A stretch of 4,436 bases of DNA from the IMG/VR virus record IMGVR_UViG_2582580962_000008, one strand, 5' to 3'. This document shows positions 1 through 4,436 of the stretch, one piece after another (position 1 is the first letter of the stretch; the number at the start of each line of letters is the position of its first letter). The stretch comes from a virus (Duplodnaviria > Heunggongvirae > Uroviricota > Caudoviricetes). Under the pieces are notes generated by a model that was not told the origin of the DNA, ran no database searches, and was given only the letters and a program-made list of their open reading frames with translations. A program made the translations under genes and the position numbers.

Positions 1-1
1 A

Positions 2-220
2 GAGCAAGTGGCTGATTGTTACCGTCTGCGATGGCAAATTGAACTGGCTTTTAAGCGGCTCAAAAGTTTGCTGCACCTGGATGCTTTGCGTGCAAAGGAA
101 CCTGAACTCGCGAAAGCGTGGATATTTGCTAATCTACTCGCCGCATTTTTAATTGACGACATAATCCAGCCATCGCTGGATTTCCCCCCCAGAAGTGCCG
201 GATCCGAAAAGAAGAACTAA
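2..220 (+). CDS. insL: IS4-family transposase (IS186 InsL-like), C-terminal fragment; the 5' end is outside the window
   Basis: Frame is open from the window edge to TAA at 218-220. The translation ...VADCYRLRWQIELAFKRLKSLLHLDALRA... carries the Y-x2-R-x3-E-x6-K motif typical of IS4-family DDE transposases. The IS186 terminal repeat lies about 150 bp downstream. Confidence 0.8.
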   Translation, partial: EQVADCYRLRWQIELAFKRLKSLLHLDALRAKEPELAKAWIFANLLAAFLIDDIIQPSLDFPPRSAGSEKKN

Positions 221-368
221 CTCGTTGTGGAGAATAACAAAAATGGTCATCTGGAGCTTACAGGTGGCCATTCGTGGGACAGTATCCCTGACAGCCTACA
301 AAACGCAATTGAAGAACGCGAGGCATCGTCTTAACGAGGCACCGAGGCGTCGCATTCTTCAGATGGTT

Positions 369-391
369 CAACCCTTAAGTTAGCGCTTATG
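369..391. repeat. Right terminal inverted repeat of IS186 (23 bp)
   Basis: CAACCCTTAAGTTAGCGCTTATG is the reverse complement of CATAAGCGCTAACTTAAGGGTTG, the IS186 terminal sequence as I remember it. It is followed immediately by a GGG-TAAA-CCCC target-like sequence. Confidence 0.65.
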
Positions 392-630
392 GGGTAAACC
401 CCGAAACCATGCTGGAAGGTGTGAAACGCTACGCGGGCTGGGTATCTGCGATGGGCAATAGCGGCACACAATTTGTGAAACAGGCTGTCACGTTCTTTGG
501 TCCGGATCGTCATTTCGAAGAATCCTGGGAAGTTCCTGCGGTATCTGCAGCCAGACGCGAGGACCCGTACTTCAAAGCCAGTTACGACAACGTGGACTAC
601 AGCCAGATCCCGACAGGATTCAGGGGGTGA
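392..630 (+). pseudogene. Probable 3' remnant of a phage ORF interrupted by the IS186 insertion (hypothetical protein, C-terminal ~79 codons)
   Basis: Frame 1 is open from inside the IS end to TGA at 628-630. No convincing RBS precedes the internal ATG at 409. The stop overlaps the RBS and start of the next gene (GGGGGTGATCATG), a sign of a once-functional coupled gene. The translation (...GWVSAMGNSGTQFVKQAVTFFGPDRHFEESWEVP...YFKASYDNVDYSQIPTGFRG) matches no family I can name. Confidence 0.4.
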
Positions 631-632
631 TC

Positions 633-1121
633 ATGAGTCTGATGAACGATGTACAGAAATTCATTGAAGCCCATCCGGGGTGTACTTCAGGTGACATTGC
701 GGATGCTTTTGCTGGTTACTCACGACAGTGCGTTCTGCAGTCAGCAAGCAAGTTACGTCAGAGTGGCCGTGTGGCTCACTGTTGTGAAGGGAAAACACGC
801 AGACATTTCCCACACCAGGCTGAGATATCGCAGGAGGAGAAACTGCAACCTGTTCTTGAAACCATACCTGTGCGCAATTTCTATGTCGGCACTAACGATC
901 CCCGGGTGATTTTGTGCCTGACCCGCCAGGCGGAAGAACTGGAGTCCAGGGGCTTATACCGTCGTGCTGCAACCGTGTGGATGGCGGCATTCCGTGAAAG
1001 CCACTCCCAGCCAGAACGAAACAATTTTCTGGCGCGTCGTGAGCGGTGCTTACGGAAAAGCAGAAAGCGCGCTGTAGCGGGTGATGAGTGGTATCTGTCA
1101 GGGAATTACGTGGGGGCTTAA
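633..1121 (+). CDS. PerC-like transcriptional regulator family protein with an N-terminal extension (about 162 aa)
   Basis: ATG at 633 follows a GGGGG RBS (623-627); the track start at 627 is a GTG inside that RBS. The C-terminal half carries a PerC/Pch-type motif (AEELESRGLYRRAATVWMAAF), matched from memory against EPEC PerC and EHEC Pch proteins. The stop TAA at 1119-1121 overlaps the next start (TAATG). Confidence 0.55.
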   Translation: MSLMNDVQKFIEAHPGCTSGDIADAFAGYSRQCVLQSASKLRQSGRVAHCCEGKTRRHFPHQAEISQEEKLQPVLETIPVRNFYVGTNDPRVILCLTRQAEELESRGLYRRAATVWMAAFRESHSQPERNNFLARRERCLRKSRKRAVAGDEWYLSGNYVGA

Positions 1122-1774
1122 TGAGTAATAAATATTGCCAGGCGCTGGTGGAACTACGGAACAAACCAGCCCATGAACTGAAGGAAGTGGGCGATCAGTG
1201 GCGCACGCCGGACAACATTTTCTGGGGAATTAACACCCTGTTTGGCCCGTTTGTTCTGGATCTGTTTACTGACGGTGATAACGCCAAATGTGCCGCGTAT
1301 TACACGGCGGAAGACAACGCGCTGGCACATGACTGGTCAGAACGTCTTGCGGAGCTTAAAGGTGCTGCCTTTGGTAATCCCCCGTACAGCCGCGCCAGTC
1401 AGCATGAGGGACAATACATCACCGGCATGCGTTACATCATGAAGCATGCCAGTGCCATGCGTGATAAAGGCGGGCGCTATGTTTTCCTGATCAAAGCGGC
1501 CACCAGCGAAGTGTGGTGGCCGGAAGATGCAGATCATATTGCTTTTATTCGCGGGCGTATTGGTTTTGAACTGCCAGCCTGGTTTATCCCGAAAGACGAA
1601 AAGCAGGTGCCAACAGGTGCTTTCTTCGCTGGTGCTATTGCTGTTTTCGACAAGACCTGGAAGGGAGCGGCAATCAGCTACATCGGGCGCGATGAACTTG
1701 AGGCATGTGGTGAGGCATTTCTGGCGCAGGTTCGCCAGCAGGCGGAAAAACTGGTCAGGGAGATGGCGGCATGA
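1121..1774 (+). CDS. Phage Dam-family DNA N6-adenine methyltransferase (orphan)
   Basis: ATG at 1121 is preceded by a GGGGG RBS (1112-1116) and overlaps the upstream stop; the track start at 1088 is an upstream GTG. The protein has the (D/N)PPY catalytic motif of N6-adenine methyltransferases (AAFGNPPYS) and an N-terminal WRTPDNIFWG...FVLDLFTDGDNAKC region typical of the phage Dam family. The stop overlaps the next start (ATGA at 1771-1774). Confidence 0.85.
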   Translation: MSNKYCQALVELRNKPAHELKEVGDQWRTPDNIFWGINTLFGPFVLDLFTDGDNAKCAAYYTAEDNALAHDWSERLAELKGAAFGNPPYSRASQHEGQYITGMRYIMKHASAMRDKGGRYVFLIKAATSEVWWPEDADHIAFIRGRIGFELPAWFIPKDEKQVPTGAFFAGAIAVFDKTWKGAAISYIGRDELEACGEAFLAQVRQQAEKLVREMAA

Positions 1775-2097
1775 CGACATTAACTCAATGCCAGCAGCAG
1801 GTGCTGGATATGCTGATTTCTTATCAGAAAGAACGTGGCTTCCCGCCAACCAATCAGGAGGTGGCAACCATGCTGGGATACCGTTCGGTGAATGCAGCGG
1901 TGGAGCATCTTCGCGCACTGGAGAAAAAAGGTGTCATCACGATAAAGCGTGGCGTGGCCCGGGGTATCACTCTTCATACCGCGGTGAAGGACGACGACAG
2001 CGAGGCGGTCGGGATTATCCGCGCCCTGCTTGCCGGTGAGGCAAACGCCAGGCTGCGTGCAGCCCACTGGTTACATGAGAGGGGCCTGAAAGTATGA
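1771..2097 (+). CDS. LexA-like protein consisting of the N-terminal winged-helix DNA-binding domain only (108 aa; no S24 peptidase domain)
   Basis: A GGGAG RBS (1758-1762) precedes the ATG. The protein aligns by eye over about 65 residues with the E. coli LexA N-terminus (LTxxQQxVxDxI...GxPPTxxExAxxLGxRSxNAAxEHLxALxKKGVIxIxxGxxRGIxL), including the RS-NAA-EHL recognition-helix region. It ends about 40 residues after the DNA-binding domain with a LexA hinge-like LLAGEANA segment and no Ser/Lys catalytic core. The stop overlaps the rusA start (ATGA). Confidence 0.85.
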   Translation: MTTLTQCQQQVLDMLISYQKERGFPPTNQEVATMLGYRSVNAAVEHLRALEKKGVITIKRGVARGITLHTAVKDDDSEAVGIIRALLAGEANARLRAAHWLHERGLKV

Positions 2098-2489
2098 AGC
2101 TAATACTGCCTTTTCCGCCCAGCGTGAACACGTACTGGCGACACCCCAACAAAGGGGCGTTTGCTGGTAAGAGCCTGATAAGCGCGGCGGGGCGAAAATT
2201 CCAGAGCGCGGCGTGTGCAGCAATAGTTGAGCAGTTACGTCGTCTGCCGAAACCAACGTCGGCACCTGCTTCAGTGGAGATCGTGTTGTTTCCTCCGGAT
2301 AACCGGATCCGCGATCTGGACAACTATAACAAGGCGCTGTTTGACGCCCTGACCCACGCGGGTGTGTGGGAAGACGACAGCCAGGTGAAAAGAATGCTGG
2401 TGGAGTGGGGACCGGTTATCCCGGAAGGGAAGGTCGAGATCACTATCAGTAAGTACGAAAAAGCGAGTTGCAAATTAGCAACTCGGTAA
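2094..2489 (+). CDS. rusA: RusA-family Holliday junction resolvase (crossover junction endodeoxyribonuclease)
   Basis: The N-terminal LPFPPSVNTYWRH matches the RusA LPWPPSxNxYYRH motif. The catalytic block RDLDNYNKALFDALTHAGVWEDDSQV corresponds to E. coli RusA D70/D72/K76/D91 ([28 protein letters not shown]). ATG at 2094 overlaps the upstream stop; TAA at 2487-2489. Confidence 0.9.
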   Translation: MKLILPFPPSVNTYWRHPNKGAFAGKSLISAAGRKFQSAACAAIVEQLRRLPKPTSAPASVEIVLFPPDNRIRDLDNYNKALFDALTHAGVWEDDSQVKRMLVEWGPVIPEGKVEITISKYEKASCKLATR

Positions 2490-2534
2490 CGGAATTGAGC
2501 AACACCCTAAATTTGGGTATTACCTCGTTAAAGA

Positions 2535-2554
2535 TACTGTATTTATGAACAGTG
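2535..2554. promoter_or_regulatory. LexA (SOS) box-like operator: TACTGTATTTATGAACAGTG
   Basis: CTGT-N8-ACAG with an AT-rich spacer, matching the E. coli SOS box consensus TACTGTATATATATACAGTA at 16 of 20 positions, with both CTGT/ACAG half-sites intact. This is the only CTGT-N8-ACAG in the window. It sits in the intergenic region 98 bp upstream of the KilA-N gene start and directly abuts a -35-like TTGATA. Confidence 0.6.
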
Positions 2555-2559
2555 TATCC

Positions 2560-2588
2560 TTGATAACTATTAAAAATCGCAGTAAGTT
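2560..2588 (+). promoter_or_regulatory. Putative sigma70 promoter for the KilA-N/DUF968 genes (-35 TTGATA at 2560-2565, 17-bp spacer, weak -10 TAAGTT at 2583-2588)
   Basis: The -35 is a 5/6 match to TTGACA and the -10 only a 3/6 match to TATAAT. Placement is tentative; the promoter could equally overlap the SOS box itself. Confidence 0.25.
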
Positions 2589-2651
2589 CATCCTGCATCA
2601 ACGAAAAGGGAGTGCAGTCCCGCTCGTGGATAAAAATTTGTGGAGAAACCA

Positions 2652-3467
2652 ATGAATCAGTTGCTTGTAATTGATGGCGTTTCTGTGCGCCAGTACTTCG
2701 AATCTAACTACTGTCTTAACGACCTTCAGAAAGCTGCTCTTCTTGCCGCTGGTGAGAATCGCTCCTCCCGTTCGCTGGAAGTTCACGAGTTTATGCGTCG
2801 TCCTGAAACGAAGGCTCTTGTGGAATTATTGGAAGAAGAAACTACGGGAGATTCCCGTAGTATTCCTGTCATCACCATTCAGGGGCGCAATGGTGGGACG
2901 TATGTCTGTAAAGAGCTGGTCTATGCATATGCAATGTGGATCAGCCCGGCATTCAGCTTAAAAGTGATACGTACTTTTGATGCGCTTCATAATTCATCAC
3001 CAGAAGAAACCACATCCGACAAAATTAAATCCGGGGTCATTCTGCTTGAATCAGCAGCAAAGACTCTAAATCTGTCAAACTCCTCGAAACTTGGTGCATA
3101 CCAGAAATTATCAAAGGTAGCTGGTCTTCCTGAACTTATGCCGATCTATGCCATTGATGCACCTGCTGATGCGCCAGATGGTTCAAGCCGCCCTACGCTG
3201 TCGCTGAGTGCACTGCTGAAGCAGTATGGTATCCGCCTGACGGCTAATCAGGCATATCACCAGATGGCGAAGCTGGGGATCGTTGAACAACGCGAACGAT
3301 ACAGCCGTACCGCGATTAACAACATCAAAAAATTCTGGTCGCTGACAGCGAAAGGCTGCATGTTCGGCAAGAACATCACCAGTCCTGCAAATCCGCGCGA
3401 GACGCAGCCGCATTTCTTCGAATCCCGATTCCCTGAGCTGTTAAAGCTGCTCGATACCGTTCATTGA
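2652..3467 (+). CDS. KilA-N domain protein (antirepressor-like or Roi-like DNA-binding protein; C-terminal domain uncharacterised)
   Basis: ATG at 2652 follows a GGAG RBS (2642-2645) with a 6-nt spacer; the track start at 2640 is a GTG overlapping that RBS. The N-terminal domain has the KilA-N hallmark block GTYVCKELVYAYAMWISPAFSLKVI (family pattern GTWVHPxLAxxFAxWLSPxF) and the upstream YCLNDLQKAA segment. The stop TGA at 3465-3467 overlaps the RBS of the next gene. Confidence 0.8.
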   Translation: MNQLLVIDGVSVRQYFESNYCLNDLQKAALLAAGENRSSRSLEVHEFMRRPETKALVELLEEETTGDSRSIPVITIQGRNGGTYVCKELVYAYAMWISPAFSLKVIRTFDALHNSSPEETTSDKIKSGVILLESAAKTLNLSNSSKLGAYQKLSKVAGLPELMPIYAIDAPADAPDGSSRPTLSLSALLKQYGIRLTANQAYHQMAKLGIVEQRERYSRTAINNIKKFWSLTAKGCMFGKNITSPANPRETQPHFFESRFPELLKLLDTVH

Positions 3468-3474
3468 GGTGACC

Positions 3475-4436
3475 GTGAGAGCACTACTGACCCCTGAAAT
3501 TGCCCCGCGTATGGGGATCGTATTGTTCAGACCAGGTTCAGAGCTGATGCCCCTGTTTATGCAGGGGCGTGTCCTGCTGGAGCCTGAGCCGGAGCGTTAT
3601 TCATCTTTCGCCAGTGGTGCCGTTCCGGCGGCATCACAACCGCTGGCGGATGATCCTGCCGTTCGGGCCGTGTTCCGCAATGAGGCAGTGATCCGTCGTG
3701 CTGGTGGCGTGGAATGTCTTGAAAGCTGGTTACTTCGTGAAAAAGGCTGCCAGTGGCCTCATTCCGACTGGCACAGCGAGAACATGACCACAATGCGACA
3801 CGCTCCGGGTGCAATCCGTCTGTGCTGGCACTGCGATAATCAGCTGCGCGATCAGTTCACGGAACGGCTGGAATCAATGGCAACGGATAACTGTGCCCGC
3901 TGGGTGTTGTCTGTTGTGCGTCGGGATCTCGGTTTTGATGACAGTCACGTTGTGACAATGCCGGAACTGTGCTGGTGGCTGATTCGTAATGATCTGGCGG
4001 ATGCCTTACCGGAAAGTGCAGCCCGTAAGGCCCTGAGATTACCGAAGCCTGTTGTGCCGTCTGTCACCCGGGAAAGTGACCTTGTGCCTTCGGTTACTGC
4101 CACCAGCATCATCCAGGATAAGGCGAAAAAGGTGCTGGCGCTGAAAGTGGATCCGGAGTCGCCGGAGTCTTTTATGTTACGCCCAAAACGTCGTCGCTGG
4201 GTTAATGAAAAGTACACGCGCTGGGTTAAGACGCAGCCGTGTGCATGTTGTGGTAAGCCAGCCGACGATCCTCATCACCTGATTGGTCATGGTCAGGGTG
4301 GAATGGGTACAAAAGCGCATGACCTTTTTGTGTTGCCTTTGTGCAGAAAACACCATGACGAACTGCATGCGGATACCGTGGCATTTGAAGAGAAGTATGG
4401 TTCCCAACTGGAGCTGATATTTCGTTTTATCGATCG
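3475..4436 (+). CDS. DUF968-like prophage protein with a C-terminal Cys/His (HNH-like or zinc-binding) cluster; the 3' end is outside the window
   Basis: An uninterrupted frame-1 ORF runs from GTG at 3475 (GAGG RBS at 3466-3469, 5-nt spacer) to the window end, about 320 codons. It is absent from the track because no stop falls within the window. The C-terminal region CACCGKPADDPHHLIGHGQGGMGTKAHDLFVLPLCRKHHDELH is the conserved DUF968-type Cys/His block as I recall it (K-12 Qin YdfU is the family member I have in mind). The start codon choice (3469, 3475 or ATG 3511) is uncertain. Confidence 0.8.
   Translation, partial: MRALLTPEIAPRMGIVLFRPGSELMPLFMQGRVLLEPEPERYSSFASGAVPAASQPLADDPAVRAVFRNEAVIRRAGGVECLESWLLREKGCQWPHSDWHSENMTTMRHAPGAIRLCWHCDNQLRDQFTERLESMATDNCARWVLSVVRRDLGFDDSHVVTMPELCWWLIRNDLADALPESAARKALRLPKPVVPSVTRESDLVPSVTATSIIQDKAKKVLALKVDPESPESFMLRPKRRRWVNEKYTRWVKTQPCACCGKPADDPHHLIGHGQGGMGTKAHDLFVLPLCRKHHDELHADTVAFEEKYGSQLELIFRFID

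Follow-up and report, generated by a model that had tools for sequence, protein, structure and literature searches.

An orphan phage N6-adenine methyltransferase gene of the PF05869 family in an Escherichia coli lambdoid prophage: family, setting and probable role

When a phage carries a DNA adenine methyltransferase gene beside which no restriction endonuclease is encoded, it may be asked what the enzyme marks, and to what end. This question is raised by a 4,436-nucleotide stretch of viral DNA (Caudoviricetes; IMG/VR record IMGVR_UViG_2582580962_000008), the whole of which is referred to below as the window, and in which a methyltransferase of 217 amino acids is encoded at positions 1121-1774. 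In the initial annotation, made from the sequence alone, the gene had been described as an orphan phage Dam-family methyltransferase, whose lack of an adjacent restriction endonuclease gene was said to fit an anti-restriction or epigenetic regulatory role. According to the analysis reported here, the product is read, with a probability of roughly 0.7, as an orphan single-domain phage Dam-family (PF05869) N6-adenine methyltransferase that marks phage DNA against restriction.

Family assignment, motifs and predicted fold

The methyltransferase open reading frame (ORF) was read on the plus strand without interruption from an ATG at 1121 to a TGA ending at 1774. In the program-made ORF list its start had been placed at an in-frame GTG at 1088; the ATG was taken as the start, since it is the RefSeq start of the identical protein WP_001409632.1 and the close homologues all begin with MSNKY. 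The protein was matched by PF05869 ('DNA N-6-adenine-methyltransferase (Dam)'; 153.5 bits against a cutoff of 28.1, E = 5.4e-45, profile positions 3-167 of 169) in Pfam, by the TIGR01712 equivalog 'phage N-6-adenine-methyltransferase' (254.4 bits against a cutoff of 97.05, E = 3.4e-76, positions 1-165 of 165) in NCBIfam, by PHROG 111 ('DNA methyltransferase'), and end to end (1-217 of 217, 520 bits) by the 'Type II methyltransferase' model of PADLOC. The matches in these four profile libraries are far beyond chance, and no Pfam family besides PF05869 was matched at E <= 0.01. The coordinates first given for a phage Dam-type methyltransferase were therefore exact, and the term 'Dam-family' applied to it holds in the sense of the phage PF05869 family but not in the sense of the EcoDam/T4Dam family (PF02086), to which there was no match.

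Other assignments were rejected. For the classical Dam family (EcoDam, T4Dam and DpnM; PF02086, alpha class, with the motif order FxGxG, target-recognition domain, DPPY), the Pfam profile was unmatched and the resemblance to EcoDam by fold was both weak and partial (E 0.24, 97 columns). An MT-A70-type prophage methyltransferase was set aside on the grounds that the motif here is NPPY and not DPPW, that the MT-A70 Pfam profile was unmatched and that METTL3/14 fold matches had a probability of 0.07 or less. Several RefSeq phage records (NC_049941, NC_029045 and others) call the stand-alone methyltransferase 'phosphoadenosine phosphosulfate reductase'; this label stems from phrog_33262, a 495-position profile of a phosphoadenosine phosphosulfate (PAPS) reductase-Dam fusion, of which the methyltransferase covers only the Dam half (positions 283-492), and it was therefore judged to be an annotation carry-over error.

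The motifs were compared with those of M.EcoVT2Dam (from phage VT2-Sakai), T1 Dam and HP1 Dam, which are characterised members of the family, and within a 22-sequence alignment of the subfamily to which the window protein belongs (YfdM-type; coordinates of the codons are given in Table 1). D25, W27, T29 and P30 of the N-terminal family motif are invariant in the former comparison, and in the latter the first three are again invariant and P30 nearly so. The other motifs common to the characterised members (L46-D47...N54, L68...W72, N86-P-P-Y-S90 and R146...F149) are all present. The region from V45 to N54 likely takes part in cofactor binding, as judged from the general methyltransferase fold, and its loop reads LDLFTDGxN in the subfamily against LDAAASxxN in the characterised enzymes. 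The subfamily is further set apart by two insertions, of which the one directly after NPPY may possibly form a substrate-contact loop; the region that contains the other has, in the subfamily alignment, an invariant P152 and a nearly invariant F176. The ratio of nonsynonymous to synonymous substitution rates (dN/dS, Nei-Gojobori) was 0.035 in the comparison with the PhiR49_1 allele and 0.05 in that with a Salmonella homologue, for which dS was 1.18, and the gene is thus under strong purifying selection.

The structure of the methyltransferase was modelled with AlphaFold2 on 22 homologues. The model (mean predicted local distance difference test score (pLDDT), 93.4; predicted template modelling score (pTM), 0.89) consists of one Rossmann-like alpha/beta domain and a long C-terminal helix (residues 190-216), without a separate target-recognition domain, and its confidence is lowest at residues 161-170 (block mean pLDDT, 78). 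A sequence search of PDB for a solved relative returned chance matches only (E > 0.5), and the PF05869 family appears to be without a solved structure. Among solved folds (Foldseek against PDB), PCIF1/CAPAM came closest through its methyltransferase domain (top three entries: E 6e-4 to 8.5e-4; template modelling score, 0.44-0.51), followed by weak matches to the gamma-type DNA adenine methyltransferases M.TaqI, DrdV, LlaGI and EcoKI. Among the viral models of BFVD, phage N6-adenine methyltransferases were matched at E of about 1e-11, and giant-virus PCIF1 homologues were found as well.

Search for a restriction partner

No restriction endonuclease model of Pfam, NCBIfam, PHROGs or PADLOC was matched by the ORFs of the window, in agreement with the original statement that no such gene is adjacent. 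Inspection of the flanking sequence for a restriction-modification partner had been proposed as a check, and for this purpose eight related phage and prophage contexts were covered at 5-20 kb to either side: an intact E. coli prophage (L001, +/-20 kb), phage PhiR49_1 (the first 31.8 kb of its 45.3-kb genome), three Cronobacter loci and three Salmonella loci. A restriction endonuclease was found beside the methyltransferase gene in none of them; in PhiR49_1 the part of the covered region from 17.6 kb onward is made up of packaging, head and tail genes. The DUF968/HNH-like protein encoded at the end of the window is not a restriction partner; DUF968 matches no PADLOC restriction model and is missing near the PF05869 genes of VT2-Sakai, T1 and HP1.

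Between Q and the transfer RNA genes of L001, at 24456-27290, the opposite strand encodes an 'ATP-dependent nuclease' together with a DNA cytosine methyltransferase. This pair, which may be a prophage-borne defence insert, is a separate insert unrelated to the adenine methyltransferase, and PhiR49_1 carries an OmpD porin gene in its place.

Characterised relatives, proposed role and competing explanations

The initial annotation had mentioned a GATC-specific Dam-like enzyme from a Shiga toxin (Stx)-type phage. This is M.EcoVT2Dam (orf32 of VT2-Sakai), a PF05869 member (218 bits) and an orphan encoded within the nin region of a lambdoid Stx phage, which is recorded as GATC-specific, with Radlinska & Bujnicki (2001) cited as the source. 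It shares the DxWxTP, LD..N, NPPYS and GR..F motifs with the window protein, but it has 175 amino acids and is 31% identical to the window protein over 144 residues. Of the two insertions, neither that of about 10 residues behind NPPY nor that of about 18 residues around 160-177 is present in M.EcoVT2Dam; the long C-terminal helix is missing as well, and LDSAAS stands where the window protein has LDLFTDG. Its gene neighbours, NinB and NinE, also differ from those of the window gene. T1 Dam (237 amino acids) and HP1 Dam (of a Haemophilus phage, 173 amino acids), which are cited as Dam enzymes, are likewise orphan phage enzymes of the same family with the same motifs, but they are 24-25% identical to the window protein and stand in other genomic contexts, those of a lytic siphovirus and a P2-like phage, respectively. 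An identity of 24-31% lies below any safe threshold for the transfer of specificity (in one motif-linking pipeline, for comparison, the threshold is 80%). Because of the 31% identity, the subfamily insertions and the difference in motif I, the specificity of M.EcoVT2Dam was not transferred to the window protein, and the earlier caution that specificity cannot be read from the sequence was upheld. The window contains 25 GATC sites against 16.4 expected, and this lack of depletion is uninformative on specificity.

Further prophage, phage and plasmid enzymes were considered as relatives and rejected. M.EcoGI/GII and M.EcoGV/M.EcoPA8orf6770P resemble the window protein in being orphan and prophage-encoded, but belong to different families: the former, which are non-specific, are of the beta class with an N-terminal DPPY, and the latter are MT-A70 enzymes with a DPPW motif. 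M.EcoGIX, which is plasmid-borne and single-strand-specific, is unrelated, Hia5/Hin1523 is of the alpha class, and M.EcoMIV of ST131 is a PF02086 enzyme.

In a search of 1.8 billion cluster representatives, homologues 67-74% identical to the window protein were found fused to C5 cytosine DNA methyltransferase domains, and other homologues were found fused to PAPS-reductase-like domains in either order. In Cronobacter prophages (L006-L008, 5001-7843), a 660-amino acid C5-methylase-like gene (weak PF00145 match) lies directly 3' of the adenine methyltransferase gene. These C5 methyltransferase fusions and tandems argue for DNA as the substrate and for multi-specificity self-protection. Some close homologues (P0126, P0128, P0130, P0133, P0143 and those of Cronobacter L006-L008) have a C-terminal extension of 80-110 residues.

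An anti-restriction or an epigenetic role is suggested by the context of the gene. For an orphan enzyme that marks phage DNA against restriction, the support observed directly consists of family membership, intact motifs, purifying selection, operon position and the absence of a restriction partner; the timing of expression, the DNA substrate, the protective role and the specificity are predicted as follows. The gene would be silent while the prophage repressor is active and, after induction or infection, would be transcribed with the replication and nin-like genes in translational coupling with its neighbours. Expression only after induction or infection is predicted from the operon position and is consistent with other prophage methyltransferases, which have been reported to be silent or weakly expressed in lysogens. 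The enzyme, predicted to depend on S-adenosylmethionine, would then methylate replicating phage DNA, and host DNA incidentally, and progeny genomes would exit fully marked with N6-methyladenine and so be shielded from adenine-methylation-sensitive restriction in the next host. As for the target, GATC would be the precedent set by the three distant characterised members of the family, M.EcoVT2Dam, T1 Dam and HP1 Dam, the last two of which are reportedly GATC-specific as well.

Several points weigh against this proposal. The identity to the characterised enzymes is low, and both subfamily insertions adjoin the catalytic motif; among solved structures, the model resembles an RNA cap methyltransferase most closely; and M.EcoPA8orf6770P, the Stx-prophage MT-A70 enzyme named as a 'DNA adenine methyltransferase', prefers 16S ribosomal RNA (rRNA) when bound to its partner. 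A GATC-specific enzyme would, moreover, bring little gain in a dam+ E. coli host beyond completing the methylation by host Dam. In the literature searched, activity, substrate or specificity data for the YfdM-type subfamily were not found.

The YfdM-type subfamily may not be a GATC Dam at all, its two conserved insertions on either side of the catalytic loop and its recurrent fusions to C5 methyltransferase and PAPS-reductase-like domains possibly reflecting a different or relaxed adenine specificity or a dual activity on DNA and RNA. This possibility is put forward as a tentative and rather doubtful one; were it true, a latent methyltransferase with a broad anti-restriction spectrum would be present in roughly 39% of complete E. 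coli genomes and would have been missed by methylome surveys on account of its silence in lysogens.

An epigenetic regulator, which would methylate particular sequences (GATC being one possibility) in promoters of the phage or the host, or in a signal for packaging or replication, and thereby tune lysis-lysogeny, packaging or host expression, is considered unlikely. The gene is flanked by, and translationally coupled to, genes for two predicted DNA-binding regulators (the PerC-family protein and the protein with only the LexA DNA-binding domain), and its adjacency to the PerC-family gene is kept in E. coli, Salmonella and Cronobacter; the LexA-like neighbour, however, is dispensable, since the operon of Salmonella lacks it, and fusion or tandem arrangement with C5 methyltransferases is more typical of multi-specificity protection modules. 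Precedents are found in the literature in the Dam control of phage promoters and of P1 pac and in Dam/OxyR phase variation in P22-like phages, but for the enzyme considered here no regulatory target is known. According to a preprint, the overproduced K-12 YfdM remnant activates or affects the propagation of a T1-like phage. K-12 yfdM (prophage CPS-53), however, corresponds to no more than the initial 267 nt of the gene (window 1121-1387) and stops at the NPPY motif, so that the fragment is unlikely to be catalytic, and its effect on the T1-like phage is difficult to ascribe to methylation.

That the enzyme acts mainly on RNA adenine (for example, in rRNA), perhaps with a partner protein in the manner of M.EcoPA8orf6770P, is improbable. 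The preference of that prophage enzyme for 16S rRNA, despite its annotation as a GATC DNA methyltransferase, serves as a precedent, and translational coupling links the gene to small neighbours with no assigned role; the rRNA enzyme, however, comes from the MT-A70 family with its DPPW motif, whereas Dam activity on DNA is reported for the PF05869 members of VT2, T1 and HP1, and fusions to C5 DNA methyltransferases occur among close homologues. PCIF1/CAPAM, to whose fold the model comes nearest and whose homologues appeared in the viral fold search too, is the eukaryotic mRNA cap N6,2'-O-dimethyladenosine (m6Am) methyltransferase, and differs from the window protein in being far larger, multidomain and directed to an RNA cap, with an identity of 10-12%. 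In the classification of Iyer et al., PCIF1 and the methyltransferase domain of the DIRS1 retrotransposon fall in the EcoKI/TaqI-like group 2 of N6-adenine methyltransferases, that is, the likeness is put down to shared descent from bacterial group 2 DNA methyltransferases, and the link to PCIF1 is known and remote. The text search for PF05869 likewise led to a paper on DIRS and Ngaro retrotransposons.

That the enzyme is the methyltransferase component of a defence system, of the restriction-modification or another type, with its nuclease just outside the window or in a neighbour such as DUF968, is largely refuted and very improbable, for although DUF968 has a weak HNH-nuclease match and a PHROG label of HNH endonuclease, and L001 has its cytosine methyltransferase and ATP-dependent nuclease after Q, none of the eight contexts held an adjacent restriction endonuclease, the neighbours matched no PADLOC restriction model, the VT2-Sakai, T1 and HP1 enzymes do without DUF968 nearby, and the L001 pair lies 3 kb off on the opposite strand with a methyltransferase of its own and is absent from PhiR49_1.

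Operon, prophage setting and distribution

The features of the window are listed in Table 1. Every gene lies on the plus strand, and in addition to the two overlaps of the methyltransferase gene with its neighbours, a third (ATGA at 2094-2097) joins the LexA-like gene to the RusA gene; from the stop/start overlaps at these three junctions, one translationally coupled operon was deduced. The G5 run lies 5-9 nt 5' of the methyltransferase ATG, and the G5/TAATG junction was also found in L001, in PhiR49_1 (L005) and in the Salmonella loci. A scan for promoters and terminators gave nothing above shuffled expectation near the methyltransferase gene.

Table 1. Features of the 4,436-nucleotide window and of the methyltransferase coding sequence (residue numbers are those of the 217-amino acid protein; VT2 stands for M.EcoVT2Dam)
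Feature	Position	Strand	Basis or remark
Phage N6-adenine methyltransferase gene (PF05869/TIGR01712), 217 amino acids	1121..1774	+	ORF and profile matches; intact homologue of truncated K-12 yfdM
Codons of N-terminal family motif D25-Q-W27-R-T29-P30 (DxWxTP)	1193..1210	+	alignment
Codons of V45-LDLFTDGD-N54, strand beta-1 and loop, likely S-adenosylmethionine-binding motif I region	1253..1282	+	D47 and N54 invariant; in the model, strand 44-50, then loop
Codons of catalytic motif IV, N86-P-P-Y89	1376..1387	+	read from sequence; invariant with VT2, T1 and HP1 Dam; directly after modelled strand 82-85
Codons of residues 90-102, with the first subfamily-specific insertion (about 10 residues, immediately behind NPPY)	1388..1426	+	absent from VT2, T1 and HP1 Dam; conserved in subfamily, including G102
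Codons of residues 151-177, with the other subfamily-specific insertion (about 18 residues, around 160-177)	1571..1651	+	gap in VT2, T1 and HP1 Dam
G5 run 1112-1116 (Shine-Dalgarno-like) and TAATG stop/start overlap 1119-1123 with PerC-family gene	1112..1123	+	sequence
ATGA start/stop overlap, methyltransferase gene and gene of protein with LexA DNA-binding domain	1771..1774	+	sequence
Upstream neighbour, PerC-family protein (YfdN-like) gene	627..1121, ATG start 633	+	PF06069, 36.9 bits; phrog_1324
Downstream neighbour, 108-amino acid protein with LexA DNA-binding domain only	1771..2097	+	PF01726, 69 bits; peptidase S24 domain unmatched
RusA Holliday-junction resolvase gene	2094..2489	+	Pfam, NCBIfam, PHROG
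KilA-N domain protein gene	2640..3467	+	Pfam, PHROG
DUF968/HNH-like protein gene, running off the window end	3475..4436	+	PF06147, 260 bits; weak HNHc_6 match
Right end of IS421 (IS4 family)	1..390	+	Pfam, NCBIfam and other matches
Remnant of phage replication-initiator gene, last 73 codons	409-630	+	PHROG match; rest removed by IS421 insertion

By megablast, positions 391-4436 were 99% identical to prophages of many E. coli strains, and identities of 94-97% were obtained with Escherichia phage PhiR49_1 and with Stx2a, Stx2c and Stx2k converting phages; on this evidence the source region is an E. coli lambdoid prophage. In both L001 and PhiR49_1 the genes are ordered cI, cro, ymfL, replication gene, PerC, methyltransferase, LexA-like, RusA, KilA-N, DUF968 and Q, and the interval from the replication gene to Q is, judging by this order, the delayed-early right operon, equivalent to the nin region of lambda. 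The preferred palindromic 12-bp target of the insertion sequence IS421, GGGGTAAACCCC, is present at 391-402. Since the insertion destroyed the upstream replication gene, the prophage copy in the window is probably defective in replication, and its methyltransferase may no longer be expressed normally. The exact IS421 junction was found in no complete E. coli genome of the collection (best coverage, 92%).

Of 5426 complete E. coli genomes, 2120 (about 39%) carry the methyltransferase gene, almost always at 95% identity or more, and it is also present in lambdoid phage PhiR49_1 and in Stx2 phages. A 100% identical gene is carried by E. coli DETEC-S792 and 2015C-3121, and the identical copy in L001 is annotated as 'phage N-6-adenine-methyltransferase' in RefSeq. 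The RefSeq WP_001409632.1 cluster (YfdM-type) has the identical gene in the order PerC(YfdN)-methyltransferase-LexA-like-RusA-KilA-N-DUF968-Q in hundreds of genomes, from which the window differs only by the IS421-interrupted upstream replication gene, the methyltransferase gene itself being unchanged. More widely, the subfamily occurs in Escherichia, Salmonella, Cronobacter and Enterobacter, in a Klebsiella phage and in Chi-like Salmonella phages. A literature search returned no relevant paper on the ECOR phages (PhiR49_1 and others).

The gene is thus an already known, ordinary and routinely and correctly annotated component of lambdoid prophages, Stx2 phages included, and as it stands is of little significance. 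Were the subfamily to recognise GATC, its activity could not be seen in dam+ hosts. Knowledge of the specificity would bear on the means by which such prophages pass restriction barriers among E. coli, Salmonella and Cronobacter, and on whether induction transiently rewrites the host methylome.

Two minor observations were made on the neighbouring sequences. The G5 run before TAATG is an apparent frameshift hotspot, and many database entries of 379-380 amino acids are PerC-methyltransferase fusions; one of these (P0011) is present on 12 contigs, with the junction ...VGGLMSNKY, consistent with one extra G. The fusions could be real alleles or homopolymer sequencing errors. In the AT-rich gap at 2490-2639, just 5' of the KilA-N gene, a perfect SOS/LexA-box core, CTGTATTTATGAACAG, lies at 2537-2552 and is the sole match in the window (0.07 expected). 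The box is absent from the Salmonella and Cronobacter versions and is kept in E. coli prophage L001 (22147) and in PhiR49_1 (9939); the KilA-N gene may be antirepressor-like and under SOS control, and the protein with only the LexA DNA-binding domain may compete at SOS boxes.

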